Notes: generated by a model not told the origin, from the sequence alone. Positions 5,755-31,924 are shown, counted from the stretch's first letter. The stretch is DNA of 33,703 nt from an uncultured virus (IMG/VR IMGVR_UViG_3300034157_000062) (IMGVR_UViG_3300034157_000062); one strand, 5' to 3'. Program-made: numbers and translations.

Positions 5755-7011
5755 ATGATCAATACTGTGCAATTATCAGGCAACAAGGCCAAACATCTGA
5801 AAACAAAGCAAGACCATTATCTTGAAATCAGCTCTATTGCTGAAAATAATGGTGGTGAATGTCTGGATCACGAATATGTAGCCAGTCATATCAAGATGAA
5901 TTTCAGATGTATTGATCAGCATGAATGGTCAGCACGTCCTAATGATATTAAGCGTGGAACATGGTGTCCATCTTGTCGTTCCAATAAAACCGAAAACCTT
6001 GTTCGTCAATTTTTCGAAACAGTATTTGATAAACCCTTTAAAGGCAATAGTCCAGAATGGCTTCAAGTTGAAGGCGAACGTAAATGTATTCTTGATGGAT
6101 TGAATACTGATCTTGGGATTGCATTTGAGTATCATGGTGAACAACATTATCATTATATTCCACATTTTCATGACAGAAATCACAAGACTTTTGAATATCA
6201 ACAAGAACGTGATGAAAAAGTAAGAACATTGTGTAGGGAAAACAATGTACATCTTATTGAAATTAAATATTTAGAAGATGGATACTCACGAGACACCTTT
6301 ATTAGTTATCTATCCAGTATTTTTGAAAAAGAATTGAACATTATTGTTTCACCTGAGCAGATTTCTAAGTTTAAAAAACTACCTTTTTCAAGTTCCAAGA
6401 TTAATGAACTCAAGGAATTGGCAAAAAAAATGAATGGTGAATGCTTGTCTGTTAAGTATTTAGGCACTCATTCAAAAGCGAAGTGGAAATGTGAAAAAGG
6501 CCATGAATGGGAAGCGGTACCTAAATCTATCAAAAAAGGTCATTGGTGCCCTTATTGTAATGGACGACTGCGAGAAGGTGATACATTGGAAGAAGTCTCT
6601 GCTATTGCTCTTTCAAAAGGCGGTCAATGCCTATCAACCAGTTTCAAAAACTTAAAAGAGAAATTAAGTTTTGTTTGTTCGGCGGGGCATTCATTTGAAA
6701 AGGCCAGCGATGGCATTATTTACCACGATCAGTGGTGCCCTTATTGTGCTAACAACAAAGTCGTTGATCCTATTAAAGATATGAACGAACATGCTATGAG
6801 TAAAGGTGGTAAATTTATTTCCACTGAATATGTGAATGGACGATCTCCATTAACATTTGAATGTGCTGATGGGCATGTGTGGAACACCACTTATTCATCT
6901 ATTAAACATCGAAAGTCTTGGTGCCCAAGATGCCATGATAAGAAAAGAGGTCAAAACTTGGCTGGATATCTTAATAAGCCTAAATCTCCACAACAGATTA
7001 TAGAAGTTTAA
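5755..7011 (+). CDS. Zinc-ribbon repeat protein with PD-(D/E)XK/Vsr-like endonuclease domain (homing-endonuclease-like)
   Basis: Four G..(L/I)...C...H.(W/F)...WCPxC repeats; E...LDG...IAFEYHGEQHY...RD.K nuclease motif between repeats 1 and 2. Confidence 0.75.
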   Translation: MINTVQLSGNKAKHLKTKQDHYLEISSIAENNGGECLDHEYVASHIKMNFRCIDQHEWSARPNDIKRGTWCPSCRSNKTENLVRQFFETVFDKPFKGNSPEWLQVEGERKCILDGLNTDLGIAFEYHGEQHYHYIPHFHDRNHKTFEYQQERDEKVRTLCRENNVHLIEIKYLEDGYSRDTFISYLSSIFEKELNIIVSPEQISKFKKLPFSSSKINELKELAKKMNGECLSVKYLGTHSKAKWKCEKGHEWEAVPKSIKKGHWCPYCNGRLREGDTLEEVSAIALSKGGQCLSTSFKNLKEKLSFVCSAGHSFEKASDGIIYHDQWCPYCANNKVVDPIKDMNEHAMSKGGKFISTEYVNGRSPLTFECADGHVWNTTYSSIKHRKSWCPRCHDKKRGQNLAGYLNKPKSPQQIIEV

Positions 7012-7030: not shown

Positions 7031-7059
7031 TTGACTTTTTTGAAAAATAGGTTTATAAT
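7031..7059 (+). promoter_or_regulatory. Sigma70 promoter P1 upstream of the leader peptide
   Basis: TTGACT (7031-36), 17 nt spacer, TATAAT (7054-59). Confidence 0.85.
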
Positions 7060-7087
7060 TTGATAATATTAAATAGGAATTTATTTT

Positions 7088-7129
7088 ATGAACATTCAAT
7101 TAACTATAAGAGCCAGAGCGATATCTTAG
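7088..7129 (+). CDS. Putative attenuator leader peptide MNIQLTIRARAIS
   Basis: AGGA RBS 7075-78; codons 7-12 are ATA AGA GCC AGA GCG ATA; tandem stops TAG TGA. Confidence 0.8.
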   Translation: MNIQLTIRARAIS

Positions 7130-7222
7130 TGAGCTAATCTCATTGAGAGGGATTAGCACACGCTAAACCCTCTGGCAAACGAATGTGGAGCCTTTGAGGG
7201 TAATAACTCAAAGGCTTTTTTT
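7112..7222 (+). promoter_or_regulatory. Putative transcription attenuator (alternative hairpins)
   Basis: 7112-18 pairs with 7170-76; 7133-41 with 7149-57; 7146-57 with 7162-73; 7167-76 with 7190-7201 (antiterminator). Confidence 0.7.
7189..7222 (+). terminator. Intrinsic terminator of the leader
   Basis: AGCCTTTGAG-8nt-CTCAAAGGCT perfect 10 bp stem ending in a T7 run. Confidence 0.9.
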
Positions 7223-7313
7223 ATGCCTGTTTGAGAAGGGTAGAGTATTACCTTAATGTTTATATATGCTTGATTTAAAAGGAAAAATAGTTAAAAATAA
7301 TTTAAAATAGTTG

Positions 7314-7342
7314 TTGACAAAGATGAAAAGAGTTGGTAAGAT
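7314..7342 (+). promoter_or_regulatory. Sigma70 promoter P2 directly upstream of tRNA array
   Basis: TTGACA (7314-19), 17 nt spacer, TGn-extended TAAGAT (7337-42), AT-rich upstream tract. Confidence 0.7.
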
Positions 7343-7399
7343 GTTAAACATGAAGAGTTGAGAAGAAAAAAGAAAAACACTTCATAAAAGAATAAATAT

Positions 7400-7477
7400 G
7401 GGGGCACATGTTCCAAGGGATGGCGAGTTTGCCTTGCACGCAGACTGTGAAGAGTTCGATTCTCTTTGTCTCCACCA
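7400..7477 (+). tRNA. tRNA-Ala(TGC), atypical D arm (C8)
   Basis: GGGGGCA/TGTCTCC acceptor with G3:U70, CT-TGC-AC loop, TTCGATT T loop, ACCA end. Confidence 0.8.
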
Positions 7478-7500
7478 GATTTGTTAACGTAGAGGTGTCT

Positions 7501-7761
7501 ATGAGTAGTCCAGAACCTAAGATATTAAAAGCGGGTGATACTATTTGGCTTGCAACTAAAATAGGTGGACTTCCGGGGTTGCCAGAAGGTCGTTACAGTG
7601 TTGTTGAAGGTGTTACACCAGAACCTGAACAACATGAAAATGATTTCGATGGAACAGCAGGAATGATTGACACATCGACAATGATAGTAGTAGAATATGC
7701 GGGAAGCCATTACTTAGTAGACTTAGTTGATAGAGAATGGCGAATTGTAGAACAAATTTAA
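7501..7761 (+). CDS. Small hypothetical protein inside tRNA cluster (86 aa)
   Basis: GAGGTG RBS before ATG 7501; fills the gap between two tRNAs. Confidence 0.7.
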   Translation: MSSPEPKILKAGDTIWLATKIGGLPGLPEGRYSVVEGVTPEPEQHENDFDGTAGMIDTSTMIVVEYAGSHYLVDLVDREWRIVEQI

Positions 7762-7766
7762 AATAT

Positions 7767-7841
7767 GGGCTGTTAGTTTAACTGGGAAAATACCTGCCTT
7801 GCACGCAGATGTTCAGAGTTCGATTCTCTGACGGTCCACCA
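7767..7841 (+). tRNA. tRNA-Ala(TGC)
   Basis: GGGCTGT/ACGGTCC, G3:U70, anticodon TGC, CCA. Confidence 0.9.
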
Positions 7842-7865
7842 TATTAGTTGTAGAGAAAGAAATAT

Positions 7866-7942
7866 GTCTGCGTAGCTCAGTTGGATAGAGCATCCGCCTT
7901 CTAAGCGGATGGTCGCTGGTTCGAATCCAGCCGCAGACACCA
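7866..7942 (+). tRNA. tRNA-Arg(TCT)
   Basis: GTCTGCG/CGCAGAC, TCCGC-CT-TCT-AA-GCGGA, CCA. Confidence 0.95.
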
Positions 7943-7947
7943 AATTT

Positions 7948-8019
7948 GGGGCGTTTAGTTTAACGGGAAAAACCATTTAGCAATAAATGAACGTGGTTCG
8001 AGGCCACGAGGCTCCACCA
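7948..8019 (+). ncRNA. tRNA-Ala-like RNA lacking a canonical anticodon loop
   Basis: G3:U70, A73, CCA, intact T arm and D arm; anticodon arm is CATTTA-GCAA-TAAATG (tetraloop). Confidence 0.7.
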
Positions 8020-8030
8020 GATTTAAATAT

Positions 8031-8105
8031 GGGCTGATAGTTTAATTGGGAAAACACCTGCCTTGCACGCAGGAATTCAGAGTTCGATTCTCTGTCGGTC
8101 CACCA
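8031..8105 (+). tRNA. tRNA-Ala(TGC)
   Basis: GGGCTGA/TCGGTCC, anticodon TGC, CCA. Confidence 0.92.
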
Positions 8106-8120
8106 GATTATAGTTTTAAT

Positions 8121-8196
8121 GTTCTCATAGCTCAATTGGAAGAGCAATGACCTTCTAAGTCATAGGTTGTAGGTTCGAGTCCTACTGGGAATACCA
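8121..8196 (+). tRNA. tRNA-Arg(TCT)
   Basis: GTTCTCA/TGGGAAT, ATGAC-CT-TCT-AA-GTCAT, CCA. Confidence 0.9.
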
Positions 8197-8201
8197 ATCA
8201 C

Positions 8202-8370
8202 AAGTTAGTTTGTTGTAAGCTAACTTAAAAAGAGCCGTGTTGCCTGATTAGCCACTAGTATACTGGTCAAGTATGATTGAAACAGCTTAATCACTGTAGT
8301 TTGACCTCTGATAAGTATATCCGGTAGGTATTTACCGACACTTCGAAGCGTGGAGATGCTTGCATCCGTG
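8202..8370 (+). ncRNA. Putative structured RNA in tRNA operon spacer
   Basis: Several nested stems identified by eye; no plausible + strand ORF. Confidence 0.4.
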
Positions 8371-8394
8371 AAGCGTTAGAAGAAATACTACTAT

Positions 8395-8469
8395 GGGCTG
8401 TTAGTTTAGCTGGGAAAATACCTGCCTTGCACGCAGGAGTGCTGGGTTCGAGTCCCTGACGGTCCACCA
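8395..8469 (+). tRNA. tRNA-Ala(TGC)
   Basis: GGGCTGT/ACGGTCC, anticodon TGC, CCA. Confidence 0.9.
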
Positions 8470-8481
8470 GTTTTGTTGTTT

Positions 8482-8558
8482 GTCCGTGTAGCTCAGTTGG
8501 ATAGAGCGTCTGCCTCCTAAGCGGAAGGTCGTAGGTTCGATCCCTATCGCGGACACCA
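8482..8558 (+). tRNA. tRNA-Arg(CCT)
   Basis: GTCCGTG/CGCGGAC, TCTGC-CT-CCT-AA-GCGGA, CCA. Confidence 0.93.
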
Positions 8559-8629
8559 GAATAAGGGGGTTTTACTGTAAAGGTAAGACCGGATTGAAGC
8601 CGTGGTTTCCGGGGGCGTTCATTCAATAT

Positions 8630-8706
8630 GGGATTTTAGCTCAGTTGGTTAGAGCATCCGACTCATAATCGGCAGGTCGTAAGTTCAAGTCTTACAAGTC
8701 CCACCA
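8630..8706 (+). tRNA. tRNA-CAT, probably Ile2 (lysidine, reads AUA)
   Basis: GGGATTT/AAGTCCC; CGACTCATAATCG anticodon arm and GTTCAAGTC T loop resemble enterobacterial tRNA-Ile2; G1:C72 so not initiator. Confidence 0.85.
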
Positions 8707-8723
8707 AATTAGATGTAACCTAT

Positions 8724-8798
8724 GGTTCTGTAGCATAACGGTAAATGCACCCCGCTCATAACGGGATGATTAAGGTTCGATTCCTTGCAGAACCACCA
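8724..8798 (+). tRNA. tRNA-CAT (Ile2 or elongator Met)
   Basis: GGTTCTG/CAGAACC, CCCG-CT-CAT-AA-CGGG, CCA. Confidence 0.85.
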
Positions 8799-8805
8799 GA
8801 TTGAT

Positions 8806-8928
8806 AGAAAGGTAGCTTAACGGGCGAGCAGCCGGGATGACCCGGTAACTTTAAATCTCATGTCAGATAAATTTTCGTAATTTATAGGCCATGTGATAGT
8901 GATAATGGTTCGAATCCATTCCTTTCTA
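8806..8928 (+). ncRNA. tRNA-like RNA with long variable-region insertion and non-canonical anticodon arm
   Basis: AGAAAGG/CCTTTCT acceptor, TAGCTTAA..GG..AGC D arm, AATGG-TTCGAAT-CCATT T arm, no encoded CCA. Confidence 0.65.
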
Positions 8929-8939
8929 CTTTTATTTTT

Positions 8940-9014
8940 GGGCTTGTAGTTCAGAGGGAGAACGCTTGTATGGCATACAAGAGGTCGTGGGTTCGAATCC
9001 CATCAGGTCCACCA
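8940..9014 (+). tRNA. tRNA-Ala(GGC)
   Basis: GGGCTTG/CAGGTCC with G3:U70, CTTGT-AT-GGC-AT-ACAAG with the characteristic A32-U38, CCA. Confidence 0.95.
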
Positions 9015-9022
9015 AATCAAAT

Positions 9023-9049
9023 AAAGAGAACTTCATAGTTCTCTTTTTT
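9023..9049 (+). terminator. Terminator of tRNA operon
   Basis: AAAGAGAACT-TCAT-AGTTCTCTTT plus T run. Confidence 0.85.
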
Positions 9050-13208: not shown

Positions 13209-13658
13209 TTATTTTGCTAGTAATACAATTTCTTCATCAATTAGATAATTAATTGATTTATTTAGTATTGTATTGATACCCATAATGGTTTTTAAAGAGA
13301 TTCCCGTATGTGAGTCTACAATGACATTTCTAGAATGTTCATAATACTCTGCTGGTTTGTCGTCAATCATTACATAATTGATTATATGGTTTTCTACTAC
13401 ATAATCCTTACATTCATAATGTCGTGTATATTCTTTGTAGGCATCTGATAAATCTTTTGTAACGCCTACGACCCGATTATTAAGGATCTGATTAAAGAAT
13501 TCAATATCTTTAATCAGTCTCCATGTCGATGAGATAACAATGTCTATATTGTTATGGCTGCAGTAAGCATTAAGACAAGCAACAGCCTCTGGATACCAGC
13601 TATTCTTGGTGGGATGTTTTAATACGCCATCTATATCTAGAAATATTATATTATTCAT
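13209..13658 (-). CDS. HAD phosphatase of the Swiss-Army-Knife RNA-repair-like type
   Basis: FLDIDGVL, IVISSTWR, YVMIDD motifs. Confidence 0.85.
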   Translation of the reverse strand: MNNIIFLDIDGVLKHPTKNSWYPEAVACLNAYCSHNNIDIVISSTWRLIKDIEFFNQILNNRVVGVTKDLSDAYKEYTRHYECKDYVVENHIINYVMIDDKPAEYYEHSRNVIVDSHTGISLKTIMGINTILNKSINYLIDEEIVLLAK

Positions 13659-13715: not shown

Positions 13716-15146
13716 ATGGATTATTACAAATTAATTGGCGAAGAAATTGCTTATTACGATATAAATGGCAAGAAACAGACAATCGGAACTATAAAACACA
13801 TCAATGATGATAAAGCTAAAGTATCATTTACCATTGATGGTCAAAATTCATTTCGTGAACTGGCTAAAAAAGATTATTTAGACAGAAGCGATATCTTAAC
13901 ACTGTTGAAAACAAACAAAAGAGAAGTGGACGCTTATTATGGCAGACCTATGACTGATGTAGGGAGTGTGTTTGATTTCGTCAAGAACACAGCTAAGAAA
14001 GGTTTTACTGAATTATCCATTGGTGATGTTTCTAATGAAAAAATCTACCTCAGAAAAGGGCAGTTTGTGACTAACAATGATTCTATATCAAGTGTGTTCG
14101 ATAATGCAGTTAAATCCGACTTAGAAGGTGATAAAGAAAGCCTTGTTGTTAAATCTATTCAGTTAAGTAAAGAAGGTAACAAAGTAATGGGTAGTCACAT
14201 TATGATTAAAGCGGCAGCAGACCCAGCCAATGATTACAAAACATTGTTAGAATTCGCAGCTCTTGAAACATTGAAAGACAGCGGATTGAATGTGCCTAAA
14301 TACAGATTAGAAACCATTGATAATCGTCCTTACTTGATTATGGAAAACTTCAACAAATCGAATTCATTTGAACTCAATGTCATCAAAGATGAACGAGGCA
14401 CCGCTATTCAGGTCGCAGATAACAATGCTTTTTACAGCACCAAATTATCGTATGACATGAATGATATGGCTAAGTGTTTTTCAAACAATAAAGCCAAGTT
14501 AAATGATGAGAACTATGAACATTCATACCTTGTAGCGATGAAACTTGCTAATGCCGTTCATGATTCTTCTAATCTTGATGGTGATACTAAGGAATATGTA
14601 GAAGCTAGAAAGAATAAAGTTCAAAAAGATTTAATGAAAGCAATGTCTTTCAACATTCTTATAGGTAACACTGATATGCATGGTGGTAATCTTAAAGTCT
14701 TATTGAACCAGAACTCAAATCCTTTAACTAATAAGCCAGACTTTGAATTTGCTCCATTCTATGACATTACCCCGCATTCTATTAATCAGTCTGGTAATAA
14801 TGAATTATTGAGACATGGTAAAAGTCTCAATACATTAGAATCAAAAGACTTATTTAATACCAGCTATCGTGGTGTTGCTAGAACAGAGACATTCCAGAAG
14901 GAATTTGAAGAAGCTAAGAAAATGGTTAAATCCTATAAAGAGAAAGTAACCAAACTATTTGAGAAGACACCTGAGTTGTTGGCTATGTTTAAAAATCATT
15001 TCACGAAAACGAATGAGTTTAAACGTGTTCAAAAATTTGATGGTATGGAATATGATTTAAGTGTTCTTGATACGGATAATAGAAAACGTCCTGAGCAAGT
15101 TAAAATACACCAGCAAAACTTTATGCCCAAAGCAAAACAAGGTTAA
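13716..15146 (+). CDS. HipA-like Ser/Thr kinase
   Basis: FNILIGNTDMHGGN and FAPFYDITP match HipA catalytic and Mg-binding motifs; E...L......GL.VP. Confidence 0.8.
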   Translation: MDYYKLIGEEIAYYDINGKKQTIGTIKHINDDKAKVSFTIDGQNSFRELAKKDYLDRSDILTLLKTNKREVDAYYGRPMTDVGSVFDFVKNTAKKGFTELSIGDVSNEKIYLRKGQFVTNNDSISSVFDNAVKSDLEGDKESLVVKSIQLSKEGNKVMGSHIMIKAAADPANDYKTLLEFAALETLKDSGLNVPKYRLETIDNRPYLIMENFNKSNSFELNVIKDERGTAIQVADNNAFYSTKLSYDMNDMAKCFSNNKAKLNDENYEHSYLVAMKLANAVHDSSNLDGDTKEYVEARKNKVQKDLMKAMSFNILIGNTDMHGGNLKVLLNQNSNPLTNKPDFEFAPFYDITPHSINQSGNNELLRHGKSLNTLESKDLFNTSYRGVARTETFQKEFEEAKKMVKSYKEKVTKLFEKTPELLAMFKNHFTKTNEFKRVQKFDGMEYDLSVLDTDNRKRPEQVKIHQQNFMPKAKQG

Positions 15147-21495: not shown

Positions 21496-23406
21496 ATGTC
21501 TAACTTAAAAAAGCACCTCGAAAAAATACAAAAAGAAGAAGCCGCTGCAAATTTCGCTAAATGGATAAGAAACGACGCTATCTTGGATGATGATAATGAA
21601 CCAAGGGTTCTATACTCTGGCACACTTTCTGAGTTTGAAAGCTTTGATATTACACAAACCCGTCCAGAAGCTTATTTCGGGCAAGGTTTCTATTTCAGCG
21701 ACAGCCTTGATGATGCGTCCGACAACTATGCGAGACGTGAAGGACCAGACCATGTGGTTAATACTGACAATGAACGCTATAAGCTGAATGATGACCTTGA
21801 AAACTTTTTAGAAATGAACTACAAAGATCAATTAGAAAATCCAGAAGCTTCAGAAATGAACCAAAAAATTAAAAACATCTATGATTTATTAATGGATGGT
21901 GAAGAAATTGATGATGAGTTATTGGATGAATTATTTGAATTTCATGAAAAAGAAAAATTAAAAAGAACACATGATGGATTTGTAATGCCAGTGTTCCTTG
22001 TGGCAAGAAAACTTATGGATGTTGATAATCATACGTTTGAAGCTGAAGAGGATTATGGTGACTTCAACGAACTCATTCAGCACTTCCAAGAAAACTTCTC
22101 AGATATTGCATCTGATTTTAGAATTGAATTAGAATCCTTATTGTCATGTCCTGATGATGAATCAAATCCAGATTTAGAAGAAGTGTTAGGCTTGTTAGAC
22201 AGTGCGATTGAATCCAGTTGTATGGATACAGAAGATGAAGACGATCTAGAAAAAATTGAAGAAATGAAAGCCTATATTGAACAATATTATGAAATAGATG
22301 ATGAACGTTGCTTAACCTATAAACTATCAGGGGAAGGACCAGCATTAAGAGACAATATTATTAGGATATTAGAAAATAATGGCTGTGAATCGGACGCCAA
22401 CCAGTTCAGAGAAGCATTTAATACTCACTTTTCAGAATTAGAAAGCACATTTACTGCTCTTGATTTCATAGAAAATGAAGATATACAAATGGCTCTTTGT
22501 GACAGTTATGTTGAAGTTGATAACATCTACAACATGCATGTGTCAGGATCAAGAGCATTGTTTGCTATGGCAATTCAGGAAATGGGCTATGATACCATAA
22601 AGATGGACCCATCAGAAAGATTTAGAGCCATGAACCATGTTGTTGGAACGACACACTATATTTCATTCAATCCTTTAAACATTAAAAGTGCTATTGGAAA
22701 CAATGGTGAGTATTCATTAACTGATCCTGATATTCTTCACCGTGTGTGTAAAAATGCTCATGACATTAATTTAAAAGAAAGTGTGATAACTTTCACTGAG
22801 GCTTCACATATCATTAGGGATATCGGACTTCACTACAAAAACATGCCAAGGTGTGAAATTCATACGAATTTTGATGATGTTAGTCATTCTATCGTAGGCA
22901 AAGATAAGAATATTGAATCTTGTACAGGTTGGTTTGATACCCATTCTCATTCTATTCATGTTTACTTACCTAATATTATGAACAGAAAAGAACTTGAAAA
23001 GACCATTTGCCATGAGTTGTTTGGTCATTTGTCATTAAGAGATATCATGGGTAATAACTATGAGAGAACCATGAATAAAGTGTATGATTACTATGAGAGT
23101 AAAGGACAGCTTGAAGACGTTAAGTCCACTTATGTTGATCGTTACAATCTTAATTTAAACAACAGAAAAGACAGAGCTATCATTGCCGAAGAAAAAATGG
23201 CCGAAGTTATTGAGCTGCATGGCTTTAAACAATTCCCGTTAAAGAATATTATTATGGGAGCTATTCGAAATAACATCCGTAAAGTGGTTGGTTCTTTAAA
23301 CATTAATGAAAATGACATTACTTACATGATGTATCAATCTCATAAAAATATGTTAGAAATGAATCATAAGAGCCAAAAGAAGAAAGCAAAAATAAAACAT
23401 CATTAA
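21496..23406 (+). CDS. Polyvalent protein: ART-PolyVal-like domain with acidic inserts plus zincin-like metallopeptidase
   Basis: NF.KW....EPRVLYSGT...F..F...GQGFYFS...YA; VMPVFL; GYD; F.P..IKSAIGNNG.Y...DPDI; HELFGH...EE..A. Confidence 0.7.
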   Translation: MSNLKKHLEKIQKEEAAANFAKWIRNDAILDDDNEPRVLYSGTLSEFESFDITQTRPEAYFGQGFYFSDSLDDASDNYARREGPDHVVNTDNERYKLNDDLENFLEMNYKDQLENPEASEMNQKIKNIYDLLMDGEEIDDELLDELFEFHEKEKLKRTHDGFVMPVFLVARKLMDVDNHTFEAEEDYGDFNELIQHFQENFSDIASDFRIELESLLSCPDDESNPDLEEVLGLLDSAIESSCMDTEDEDDLEKIEEMKAYIEQYYEIDDERCLTYKLSGEGPALRDNIIRILENNGCESDANQFREAFNTHFSELESTFTALDFIENEDIQMALCDSYVEVDNIYNMHVSGSRALFAMAIQEMGYDTIKMDPSERFRAMNHVVGTTHYISFNPLNIKSAIGNNGEYSLTDPDILHRVCKNAHDINLKESVITFTEASHIIRDIGLHYKNMPRCEIHTNFDDVSHSIVGKDKNIESCTGWFDTHSHSIHVYLPNIMNRKELEKTICHELFGHLSLRDIMGNNYERTMNKVYDYYESKGQLEDVKSTYVDRYNLNLNNRKDRAIIAEEKMAEVIELHGFKQFPLKNIIMGAIRNNIRKVVGSLNINENDITYMMYQSHKNMLEMNHKSQKKKAKIKHH

Positions 23407-28756: not shown

Positions 28757-29206
28757 TTAATAGAATTTTTCGATAGTTCTCAATTCAAAATCTATGGTGT
28801 CTATTAAATAACCAGAACATTTTAAATATTCAATGATACCGTTTTCTTTATTAAATTCATTCATGAGATAGCGAGAATTTCCATTCATTTCACGACGACC
28901 ATTCCATGAAAAGAATATATCAAAACCTTGATGTACATCATTGTAATACTGAACAAATAAACCATGTTTACGATTTTTCTTTCGTAGTCTTTTCTGAGGA
29001 AGCGTATTACTTATTGAAAATTTTAATGATTTTATATTATAAAAATTAGTCTCCATTAACGTTAATAAAATAGACTCCATTGATTTTAATAAACGTTCTT
29101 TTTCATACTCGCCTACATCACCTTCTGTTTCAAAATGAAAATCTAGAACACAATTGGTTTCTTTCATGGTTATTTTTATATTTTTCAACGTATTATCCTT
29201 TTGCAA
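28757..29206 (-). CDS. Hypothetical protein
   Basis: 149 aa ORF downstream of the phosphatase; start uncertain. Confidence 0.65.
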   Translation of the reverse strand: MQKDNTLKNIKITMKETNCVLDFHFETEGDVGEYEKERLLKSMESILLTLMETNFYNIKSLKFSISNTLPQKRLRKKNRKHGLFVQYYNDVHQGFDIFFSWNGRREMNGNSRYLMNEFNKENGIIEYLKCSGYLIDTIDFELRTIEKFY

Positions 29207-29885
29207 AAACGCGGCCAGCCACTTTCAAGGTTTTAAGGTTTACTGCAGTCAGTGAACCACCTGAGTAATAGCCAGTATCTAGAAAGATTACGTTAGCGTG
29301 ACGTTCAGGATTTTTAAAGATGTGATGACCTACAAAGACGACATCAATGTTAGTGATTGGGTCAATTCTTTCACCTTTTTGAACAGCCTTCGAAGCCGTT
29401 CTACTCCAAATGATGTTACCTATCTCTATTTTGTTTTTATTTTTAATCGCCTTCAAGGTGTCTTTCCAATCAGACAATGGGTAAGCATGAACAAGCCCTA
29501 CTTTGCCCACTTGAATAGCGTATGGAAGCTCATTGAGTCTATTAATAATCGCTTGACGATGCTCTAAACTTTCATCAAAGAACCATTGATTGCCTTCTTT
29601 GTTAATGTCTTGATAACATTCGGTATAAGGTTTCAAACCATGCTTGATGAGGATATCTTCATGATTTCCACGAATAGTGAATAACCATTTGTTTTTTAAT
29701 AGTTCAAGTACTTTATTACTGTCTAATCCACGATCAGTGAGATCCCCTAAACAAAATAGGCGATCTTTTTCTTTATTAAAACCGATTTGGTCCAACAATG
29801 CATAAAGAGCCGTGTAGTTACCGTGTAAGTCACCTACACAGTAGTCATTTCCTTCTTTATTCTCTTTATAAATTTCATATAACAT
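29193..29885 (-). CDS. Ser/Thr protein phosphatase / metallophosphoesterase (lambda NinI/PphA-like)
   Basis: GDLHG, GDLTDRG, RGNHE, VHA, GH, DTG motifs. Confidence 0.9.
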   Translation of the reverse strand: MLYEIYKENKEGNDYCVGDLHGNYTALYALLDQIGFNKEKDRLFCLGDLTDRGLDSNKVLELLKNKWLFTIRGNHEDILIKHGLKPYTECYQDINKEGNQWFFDESLEHRQAIINRLNELPYAIQVGKVGLVHAYPLSDWKDTLKAIKNKNKIEIGNIIWSRTASKAVQKGERIDPITNIDVVFVGHHIFKNPERHANVIFLDTGYYSGGSLTAVNLKTLKVAGRVFAKG

Positions 29886-31315: not shown

Positions 31316-31924
31316 TTATTCCAAGGTATTGAATAAGGTTTCATCATCACCGCACTTGGCTTTTAACCTATCAATCCAAGCTTGATTTTTGACTTTACAC
31401 CTGACAATCTTGTTTCTTACAACGGCCTTACCAATGACACCTTCAAATGTCACACCATCGAGAGTGCCCGTTTTAATCTTCTCTAACATTGTTCTGTTGA
31501 ACTTAGAGATAAGAAGAAATTCAGACATTTCTACTGACCCATCAAACGTCTTGATGTATTCCTTGGGTGGTAAGTAACCTATTCTACCAATGTGAGCGTC
31601 AATAAGAGAAACTTTAAATGTATCATTCTCATCATGGAAACCAGCAAAAGAATTAGGGCCATGAAACTCAAAAAACAACGTTCCATTTTCCCATTTATTC
31701 TTTTTAAAGATATCATGAACAGCTTTTTCATAACCCATAATCAACTCTTTCGACTGATTAAGAATACCTGAATCATCTGACATTAATTTCTTTCTTGTTC
31801 CAAATTTATCGAAGCCTTTTTTAAGCGAATATTCAACTCGAACGTTTGAACCATCTAATTTGTCAAAAATGTAGTAGTCAACGTCTTGAATAATGCCTTT
31901 ACCTATTGATGGATACTGTTGCAT
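31316..31924 (-). CDS. RNA ligase-like covalent nucleotidyltransferase (Rnl2-like catalytic domain)
   Basis: Motif I KLDGSN, EFHG, EGVI (motif IV), KVK (motif V). Confidence 0.75.
   Translation of the reverse strand: MQQYPSIGKGIIQDVDYYIFDKLDGSNVRVEYSLKKGFDKFGTRKKLMSDDSGILNQSKELIMGYEKAVHDIFKKNKWENGTLFFEFHGPNSFAGFHDENDTFKVSLIDAHIGRIGYLPPKEYIKTFDGSVEMSEFLLISKFNRTMLEKIKTGTLDGVTFEGVIGKAVVRNKIVRCKVKNQAWIDRLKAKCGDDETLFNTLE

Follow-up and report, generated by a model that had tools for sequence, protein, structure and literature searches.

The tRNA array and its leader

The DNA considered here is a stretch of 33,703 nucleotides (nt) from an uncultured virus (IMG/VR IMGVR_UViG_3300034157_000062), called the window below, which is AT-rich (32% G+C) and is apparently a piece of a large phage. 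It carries an array of ten transfer RNA (tRNA) genes. Upstream of the array lie, in this order, a promoter (P1), a Shine-Dalgarno motif, a short open reading frame (ORF), a set of overlapping RNA helices, an intrinsic terminator and a second promoter (P2), all listed in Table 1. An original prediction, made from the sequence alone, had taken the part from P1 to the terminator for a leader-peptide attenuator whose codons sense the tRNAs encoded downstream. The elements, their coordinates, the codon run and the alternative folds on which it was built are confirmed, and the reading as a codon-matched leader attenuator is supported, all computational tests having come out as such a model would predict.

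P1, which is the top promoter-like site of its region, was found in its predicted position, and both the AGGA motif and the 13-codon ORF could be read from the sequence at the coordinates claimed for them. The AGGA motif is comparable to the ribosome-binding sites of other genes in the window, for example those at 5755 and 9995. Within the ORF, the six consecutive codons thought to act as the sensor (the sensing run) are present as described, and they are exceptional in the window. The codon set to which they belong (GCN, AGA, AGG and ATA) accounts for 8.3% of all codons in the 38 ORFs of the window (9,379 codons), and the sensing run is the sole run of at least six such codons in the six frames of the 33.7 kb, where runs of five occur twice. 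If codons are drawn independently according to their usage in the window, a six-codon run in 12 codons has a chance of 2e-6, or 1e-5 when ATG is counted.

All ten tRNA genes called by ARAGORN are supported by Rfam, the first of them weakly (30.8 bits). One of the two genes with a CAT anticodon (8630-8706) has its top match, at 83% identity, among E. coli genes annotated as tRNA-Ile and is thus assigned to the Ile2 type, while the top match of the other (8724-8798) is to phage genes annotated as tRNA-Met. The array had been described as consisting of essentially only tRNA-Ile2, Arg(TCT), Ala(GGC) and Ala(TGC), the four species that decode the sensing run. This holds for eight of the ten genes and fails for the remaining two, Arg-CCT and the Met-like CAT tRNA.

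Table 1. Features of the leader, the tRNA array and their surroundings. Positions refer to the window unless a relative (G001) is named; the last column gives variable columns in the three-genome alignment described in the text.
Feature	Position	Strand	Description	Variable columns
HNH/DUF4379 homing-endonuclease-like protein	5755-7011		directly before leader and array	
3' end of upstream gene				21/37
Promoter P1	7031-7059	+	-35 TTGACT (7031-36), 17-nt spacer, -10 TATAAT (7054-59); 11/12 match to consensus	hexamers 0/12 (0/6 each); spacer 7/17
P1 to ribosome-binding site	7060-7074			5/15
Near-invariant block	7075-7242	+	ribosome-binding site to past the terminator	2/168
Shine-Dalgarno AGGA	7075-7078	+	9 nt 5' of the ATG at 7088	
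Leader ORF	7088-7129	+	13 sense codons and TAG, MNIQLTIRARAIS*, then a second stop, TGA	0/42
Outer stem	7092-7097/7181-7186	+	in minimum-free-energy fold	
Sensing run	7106-7123	+	ATA AGA GCC AGA GCG ATA, within leader ORF	
Helix A	7112-7117/7171-7176	+	closes a three-way junction with H1 and C; free-RNA, termination-competent fold	
Hairpin H1	7124-7133/7139-7148	+	10 bp; in minimum-free-energy fold; -9.7 kcal/mol	
Helix B	7133-7141/7149-7157	+	-10.3 kcal/mol; excludes H1 and C; in minimum-free-energy fold under stall masks only	
Helix C	7146-7151/7168-7173 and 7153-7157/7162-7166	+	-15.1 kcal/mol	
Antiterminator D	7167-7172/7196-7201 and 7174-7176/7190-7192	+	-11.9 to -13.1 kcal/mol	
Intrinsic terminator E	stem 7187-7198/7207-7218, to 7222	+	8-nt loop, run of seven T; -17.8 kcal/mol	0/39
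Between block and P2	7251-7313			16/63
Promoter P2	7314-7342	+	TTGACA-17-TAAGAT, upstream TG; 10/12 match to consensus	6/29
P2 to array	7343-7401			10/59
tRNA array	7402-9014	+	10 genes (ARAGORN): Ala-TGC x4, Ala-GGC x1, Arg-TCT x2, Arg-CCT x1, CAT x2	
Terminator-like hairpin	9023-9046	+	at array end	
HAD_SAK_2 ("Swiss Army Knife RNA repair")	13209-13658	-		
HipA_C-like kinase domain	13716-15146	+		
ART-PolyVal	21496-23403	+		
Metallophosphatase	29193-29885	-		
RNA-ligase-like	31316-31924	-		
Leu-array promoter	G001, upstream of second array	array strand	TTGACT-17-TAAAAT with TG	
Leu leader ORF	G001, upstream of second array		20 codons, MFTTIRLSLLLLSSLLLSLG*; GAGGA ribosome-binding site upstream	
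Downstream of Leu ORF	G001		hairpins, terminator with seven T, copy of P2 cassette	
tRNA-Leu genes of second array	G001		TAG x2, TAA x3, CAA x3, CAG x1, AAG x2	
Other genes of second array	G001		one Gln (Gln-TTG), one unassigned with a four-base anticodon	

Conservation of the leader

Exact-pattern scans recovered the leader in an IMG/VR contig of 181 kb (G001; its leader locus is L001) and at two further loci, L006, which belongs to the same phage as L001, and L007, from a third genome. The alignment thus compares three genomes, the window included. In the DNA flanking the element, the relatives share 76.5-80% identity with the window. The nearly invariant part sets in exactly at the AGGA motif and ends about 20 nt beyond the T run of the terminator. 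Conservation within the resulting block is higher than in the tRNA genes, whose closest aligned pieces are 84-96% identical. The survival of codons and helices in homologs was a point on which the original prediction had staked itself, and both are retained. Loops and linkers are as invariant as the stems. The only change inside the switch, A7152G in L001, affects the bulged base of C and replaces an A-U pair in B by G-U. In the fold of the free RNA, 12 of the sensing run's 18 bases are unpaired, yet they are invariant, which fits a constraint at the codon level.

Two other causes of this conservation were tried and rejected. A protein-coding origin is contradicted by the stop-to-stop frames, which reach at most 45 amino acids and never span the block. 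Recent co-conversion during homing does not account for it either, the adjoining endonuclease-like gene being itself only 76-80% identical between genomes.

Additional relatives were sought in several ways. A protein-based search of viral contigs with the downstream 278-amino-acid protein and an 86-amino-acid ORF of the array returned no relatives, scans of genome contigs with the leader pattern and with the P2 pattern gave 0 matches, and in further scans of viral contigs G001 was the sole relative. Searching a phage collection with blastn matched individual tRNAs and found no leader homologue. A match to the 18-mer of the sensing run, L004, lies in an unrelated GC-rich coding region and was dismissed as chance. 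The relative phage sequence (L006/G001) sits within a metagenome contig of 1.86 Mb, and the 181-kb record of G001 is classed as a provirus by IMG/VR, with a CheckV completeness of 58%.

Alternative folds and ribosome-masked folding

The arms of helices A to E all read as they had been quoted. The free RNA (7066-7225) folds with -49 kcal/mol (z-score -5.6), and none of 200 shuffled sequences was as stable. Its minimum-free-energy structure comprises the outer stem, helix A, H1, hairpin C and the terminator; H1 and the outer stem are additions to the helices listed before. The terminator, given earlier as a 10 bp stem with seven T at 7189-7222, was recovered by a terminator scan with a stem that begins at 7187 and has 12 pairs, the 10 from 7189 onwards being Watson-Crick. 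Between 7060 and 7230, cmscan against Rfam 15 (E up to 1) reported no family, T-box included, and ARAGORN called no tRNA.

Folding under ribosome-footprint constraints, a check that the original prediction had asked for, was carried out on nascent transcripts (7066-7201 and 7066-7206), in which the 3' arm of the terminator does not yet exist, with a ribosome masking positions -18 to +12 around the A site. The three proposed states were reproduced. The free nascent RNA adopts A, H1 and C with 0 of the 12 bases of the terminator arm paired upstream, in line with the termination proposed for the untranslated leader. When the A site is at AGA7109, GCC7112, AGA7115 or GCG7118, the RNA forms B and D and six arm bases are paired, as proposed for a ribosome stalled on the sensing codons. 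A ribosome placed at the stop codon gives C with 0 paired arm bases; the claim that this state terminates is supported with footprints reaching +12 or +14 and not with +10, where the arm pairs upstream.

Ensemble calculations over all codons, with footprints of +10, +12 and +14, give the same picture in graded form. The mean probability that the arm pairs upstream is 0.07 in the free RNA, 0.10-0.17 for stalls at codons 2-4, 0.60-0.66 over the six sensing codons (0.53-0.66 for A sites from 7103 to 7124) and 0.38-0.39 at the stop codon with the +12 and +14 footprints. All six cognate codons thus fall within the stall window, which is slightly wider than the run. In control sequences, where the terminator was kept and the upstream part shuffled with dinucleotides preserved, the full three-state switch appeared 20 times in 1000 trials for 7130-7186 and 12 times in 1000 for 7091-7186, while stall-induced arm pairing of some kind, taken alone, was seen in about 65% of shuffles.

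A second leader before a tRNA-Leu array

A tRNA search in G001 detected a second tRNA cluster about 78 kb from the first. It contains 13 genes by ARAGORN, 11 of them tRNA-Leu genes with five anticodon types, and it is preceded by an element that is a paralogous version of the window's leader layout (Table 1). The two leaders do not align, whereas the P2 cassette of about 130 nt that follows the terminator is about 90% identical between the two arrays. P2, already reported at its position downstream of the window's terminator, is thus conserved and duplicated before both arrays, and the original caveat stands that attenuation may provide a boost rather than on/off control.

Nine of the 19 codons that follow the ATG of this second ORF encode Leu (P = 1.3e-5 at a Leu usage of 8.8%). 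All six Leu codons are used, and every anticodon type of the Leu array finds its codon in the leader. The covariation of leader codons with array anticodons that had been put forward as a test is therefore observed, in the form of a Leu-rich, non-homologous leader in front of a tRNA-Leu array. When the Leu leader is folded under ribosome masks, its terminator arm is unpaired both without a ribosome and with one at the stop codon. Six of nine stall states at Leu codons show an antiterminator (115-124/159-168, local numbering); this switch pattern was found in 4 of 400 shuffles.

Two side observations concern this array. Codons 4 and 5 of the window's leader (CAA for Gln and TTA for Leu, in 7088-7105) would be read by tRNAs encoded there, Gln-TTG and Leu-TAA; these codons lie at or beyond the edge of the stall window, and the match may be coincidence. 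The tRNA with the four-base anticodon (cgct in the ARAGORN call; L008 3233-3318, minus strand) is of type-II size and could be frameshift-suppressor-like or degenerate.

A model for regulation of the array

We consider it fairly probable that a ribosome-mediated leader-peptide transcription attenuator gates transcription from P1 into the phage tRNA array. Transcripts from P1 would begin near 7066 and carry the 13-codon ORF, whose six central codons call for tRNA-Ile2, Arg-UCU, Ala-GGC and Ala-UGC, species encoded downstream. If these codons are decoded fast, the ribosome would reach the double stop and depart, and the RNA would adopt A, H1 and C; the 5' arm of the terminator would then be free to form hairpin E, and transcription would end at the run of seven T. 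If decoding is slow, the stalled ribosome would mask the 5' arms of A and H1, B would replace H1 and C, and segment 7167-7176 would be released to pair with 7190-7201 (D) before the 3' arm of the terminator is synthesized. RNA polymerase would then continue through P2 into the tRNA genes. Termination is also expected when the leader is not translated.

Four parts of this model are inferred: the leader would have to be translated, ribosomes would have to stall on it, read-through would have to result, and some physiological condition would act as the trigger. The attenuator probably raises the supply of the matching tRNAs when ribosomes run short of them. Shortage would lead to more transcription of these tRNAs, in addition to the basal level that P2 provides, in a closed loop that should be self-correcting, since its output is the limiting decoder itself. 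Candidate triggers are the phage's own codon demand, AGA making up 44% of its Arg codons and ATA 26% of its Ile codons, feedback on the level of phage tRNAs, and host nucleases that cut tRNAs. The nuclease trigger finds some indirect support in the low use of Ala (4.3%) and Arg (3.1%), given that tandem Ala and Arg tRNAs are nevertheless present near endonuclease-like and RNA-repair genes.

Whether the arrangement is general is for us an evenly balanced question: large phages may place each tRNA block behind its own codon-matched leader attenuator, which would sense a shortage of decoders in real time and yield replacement tRNAs. If so, the shortage would arise from the AT-rich codon demand of the phage or from host immunity that cleaves tRNAs. 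This would be the first attenuation system with tRNA itself as its output, and it would add a damage sensor to the counter-defence toolkit of phages.

Evaluation of the model and of alternatives

Several observations weigh against the attenuator model. The element is carried by three phage genomes only, and no helix shows a compensatory change across the relatives, the block being nearly invariant. The stop-codon state is the least robust part of the model, as it depends on the footprint: with +10 nt, seven arm bases are paired (probability 0.57). Stalls at non-cognate codons (ACT 7103 and TCT 7124, and TTA 7100 with the +12 and +14 footprints) also yield the antiterminator. Folds of the full-length RNA (7066-7225) retain the terminator and C under every ribosome mask, so that the switch could only be kinetic, acting before the 3' arm is transcribed. 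The shuffle rates of 1-2% are somewhat liberal, because thresholds were fixed at the observed values. P2 is conserved and lies 3' of the terminator, which implies that the array can be transcribed without the switch. Finally, the presence of all six Leu codons among the nine of the Leu leader has P = 0.04 under the window's codon usage, and at least nine Leu codons within 13 codons occur at two places in the six frames of 53.7 kb, namely the leader and L007 +618, inside a gene-homologous region. Leu richness alone is thus not unique; the position of the leader is.

The segment from P1 to E could instead be a self-contained unit that produces a stable small RNA some 155 nt long (folded as A, H1 and C), a 13-residue peptide, or both, with the array transcribed from P2 only and any read-through unregulated. 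A strong promoter paired with a strong terminator, a compact and very stable fold, the invariance of loops and linkers along with stems, and a conserved P2 directly downstream, with the same cassette at both arrays, would all suit such a unit, and an attenuator RNA that also acts in trans, rnTrpL, is on record (in the available part of PMC6614838). We nevertheless regard this explanation as unlikely. It leaves unexplained why codons match arrays in two non-homologous leaders, why conservation sets in at the ribosome-binding site and why masking those exact codons exposes the antiterminator; moreover, the Rfam search described above found no family in the segment. A role in trans is compatible with attenuation, and both could coexist.

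Mutually exclusive helices next to a terminator, and nucleotide conservation as extreme as in riboswitch cores, might also be expected of an RNA switch that works independently of translation, in which a ligand, a protein or an uncharged tRNA bound in the manner of a T-box selects D or E and the ORF is incidental; the UGGC at 7173-7176 within D could be cited in its favour. We find this improbable, as the leader matches neither the T-box nor any other Rfam family at E up to 1 and the unmasked RNA favours the terminator state. In addition, the ribosome-binding site, the ATG and the codon run are conserved and statistically exceptional, and the Leu leader, which differs in sequence and fold, again contains a codon-matched ORF. 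We give similarly little credence to the proposal that the ORFs are minigenes or decoys that tie up or test tRNAs in the manner of lambda bar, or that the Leu ORF makes a hydrophobic peptide, the terminator just ending the unit. The ORFs are indeed small, with a surplus of codons such as ATA and AGA, and the Leu leader peptide (MFTTIRLSLLLLSSLLLSLG) resembles a membrane-type peptide. However, with 13 and 20 codons they are far longer than bar-type minigenes, the Ala/Arg/Ile peptide of the window is not hydrophobic, the Leu ORF uses all six Leu codons in a genome of 32% G+C (P = 0.04), and folds with a stall-dependent antiterminator would have no role. A chance resemblance, in which an intergenic site happens to look like a promoter, the ORF arose by accident and the terminator belongs to the upstream gene, could draw on the abundance of promoter-like sites in this AT-rich DNA (30 found, against 19.9 expected) and on the 1-2% of shuffles that show the three-state switch. 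It is scarcely credible, and we exclude it on the strength of conservation (2 of 168 columns variable in the block, against about a quarter in flanking intergenic DNA) and of the second, independent instance before the Leu array; the codon run, besides, is unique in the window.

Other features of the array and its surroundings

Between 7758 and 8572, the array consists of three tandem units of Ala(TGC) followed by an Arg tRNA (Arg-TCT, Arg-TCT and Arg-CCT), the copies being 79-90% alike. These units, directly 3' of a homing-endonuclease-like gene, are reminiscent of the endonuclease-driven tRNA amplification that the available text of PMC13096335 presents as counter-defence. An 86-amino-acid ORF without family match (7501-7761) lies between the first two tRNAs; it has its own GAGG ribosome-binding site, contains a promoter-like site with an 11/12 match (7667-7696) and is found only in the window, the two tRNAs being about 20-40 nt apart in L001 and L007. 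A tRNA-shaped element at 7950-8022 (L001 3695-3769, L007 4522-4596) has a G3:U70-type acceptor stem, a good T arm and an abnormal anticodon loop; ARAGORN makes no call for it in the window, while in the relatives it reports "tRNA-???" and an anticodon of two bases (tt or ta). The segment 8800-8930 (G001 158038-158161) comprises about 125 nt whose end resembles the T arm and acceptor strand of a tRNA. Its counterpart in G001 is matched as a tRNA of 124 nt with 31.9 bits, and the segment may thus represent a tRNA that carries a long insertion. The array spacers at 8200-8390 and 8560-8625 are without explanation.

Family matches were obtained for a minority of the window's ORFs, and those matched belong to phage groups or carry domains typical of phages. 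Genes of RNA-repair and host-takeover type occur near the array (HAD_SAK_2, metallophosphatase, RNA-ligase-like, HipA_C-like and ART-PolyVal; Table 1), and other domains include Nudix and two DEDDh exonucleases. Among named phages, the top protein matches are to jumbo phages such as XacN1 (52% across half of one protein). Vibrio phage QD01 and Xanthomonas phage XacN1 have tRNAs or one protein in common with the window, and their tRNA regions differ in kind from the array described here, covering all amino acids or being dispersed among ORFs.

Relation to known systems

Very short phage ORFs whose effect is tied to the tRNAs of rare codons, such as Ile-AUA, are known from the lambda bar minigenes, which are 2-3 codons long and work through peptidyl-tRNA drop-off. 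The ORFs described here are likewise very short, and their effect would likewise depend on such tRNAs, but they lie inside a terminator/antiterminator switch and upstream of matching tRNA genes, in addition to being longer. T-box leaders share with the present element, as modelled here, a choice between terminator and antiterminator that depends on the state of a specific tRNA. However, a T-box binds the tRNA directly and without translation, whereas the putative sensor here is an ORF, in a leader with no Rfam match (E up to 1) and no specifier-loop architecture.

Phage tRNAs that evade tRNA-cleaving defences are reported in PMC10264068 and PMC11555353, a bacterial Schlafen nuclease that cuts tRNA-Ala(UGC) and tRNA-Met(CAU), among others, in PMC13056530, and the amplification of tRNA genes by a homing endonuclease under tRNA-cleaving pressure in PMC13096335. 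Judged from the available parts of these four papers, the window resembles such counter-defence arrays in having multiple copies of tRNAs of few species beside homing-endonuclease-like and RNA-repair-type genes. The same parts deal with tRNAs and their copy number and make no mention of a codon-matched leader or attenuator. A full-text literature search, whose coverage leaves subscription journals largely outside, found no published description of a leader-peptide attenuator before tRNA genes. The present model would bear on why phages carry tRNAs and how they deploy them against tRNA-targeting defences, and it suggests that tRNAs are supplied on demand instead of constitutively. As two non-homologous leaders in one genome are each matched to their array, the idea can be tested with simple reporters, and the two leaders provide compact sensors of translation stress that are codon-specific and programmable.

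The closest parallel is with the leader-peptide attenuators of amino-acid operons (trpL, hisL, leuL, pheL, thrL and ilvL), which are also known from pheST. Like them, the element has a promoter, a ribosome-binding site and a short ORF whose regulatory codons are cognate to what the operon supplies, followed by overlapping alternative hairpins, in a multi-segment layout nearest to that of his, and by an intrinsic terminator before the structural genes; in both, termination is the default without translation. The general principle is stated in the available part of PMC1183508. The present element differs from these operons in several ways: the genes that it would control encode tRNAs rather than enzymes or synthetases; its signal would be resolved to codons and isoacceptors (ATA, AGA, GCC and GCG in one leader, the six Leu codons in the other) instead of being a run for a single amino acid; the setting is a phage-like genome with a second conserved promoter between terminator and genes; and the tRNA product is consumed by translation of the leader itself, which would make the feedback direct. 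The textbook control of amino-acid biosynthesis thus appears to be applied here to tRNA genes, with a sensor resolved to codons and isoacceptors, and the phage would thereby gain a direct feedback loop on its decoding capacity.

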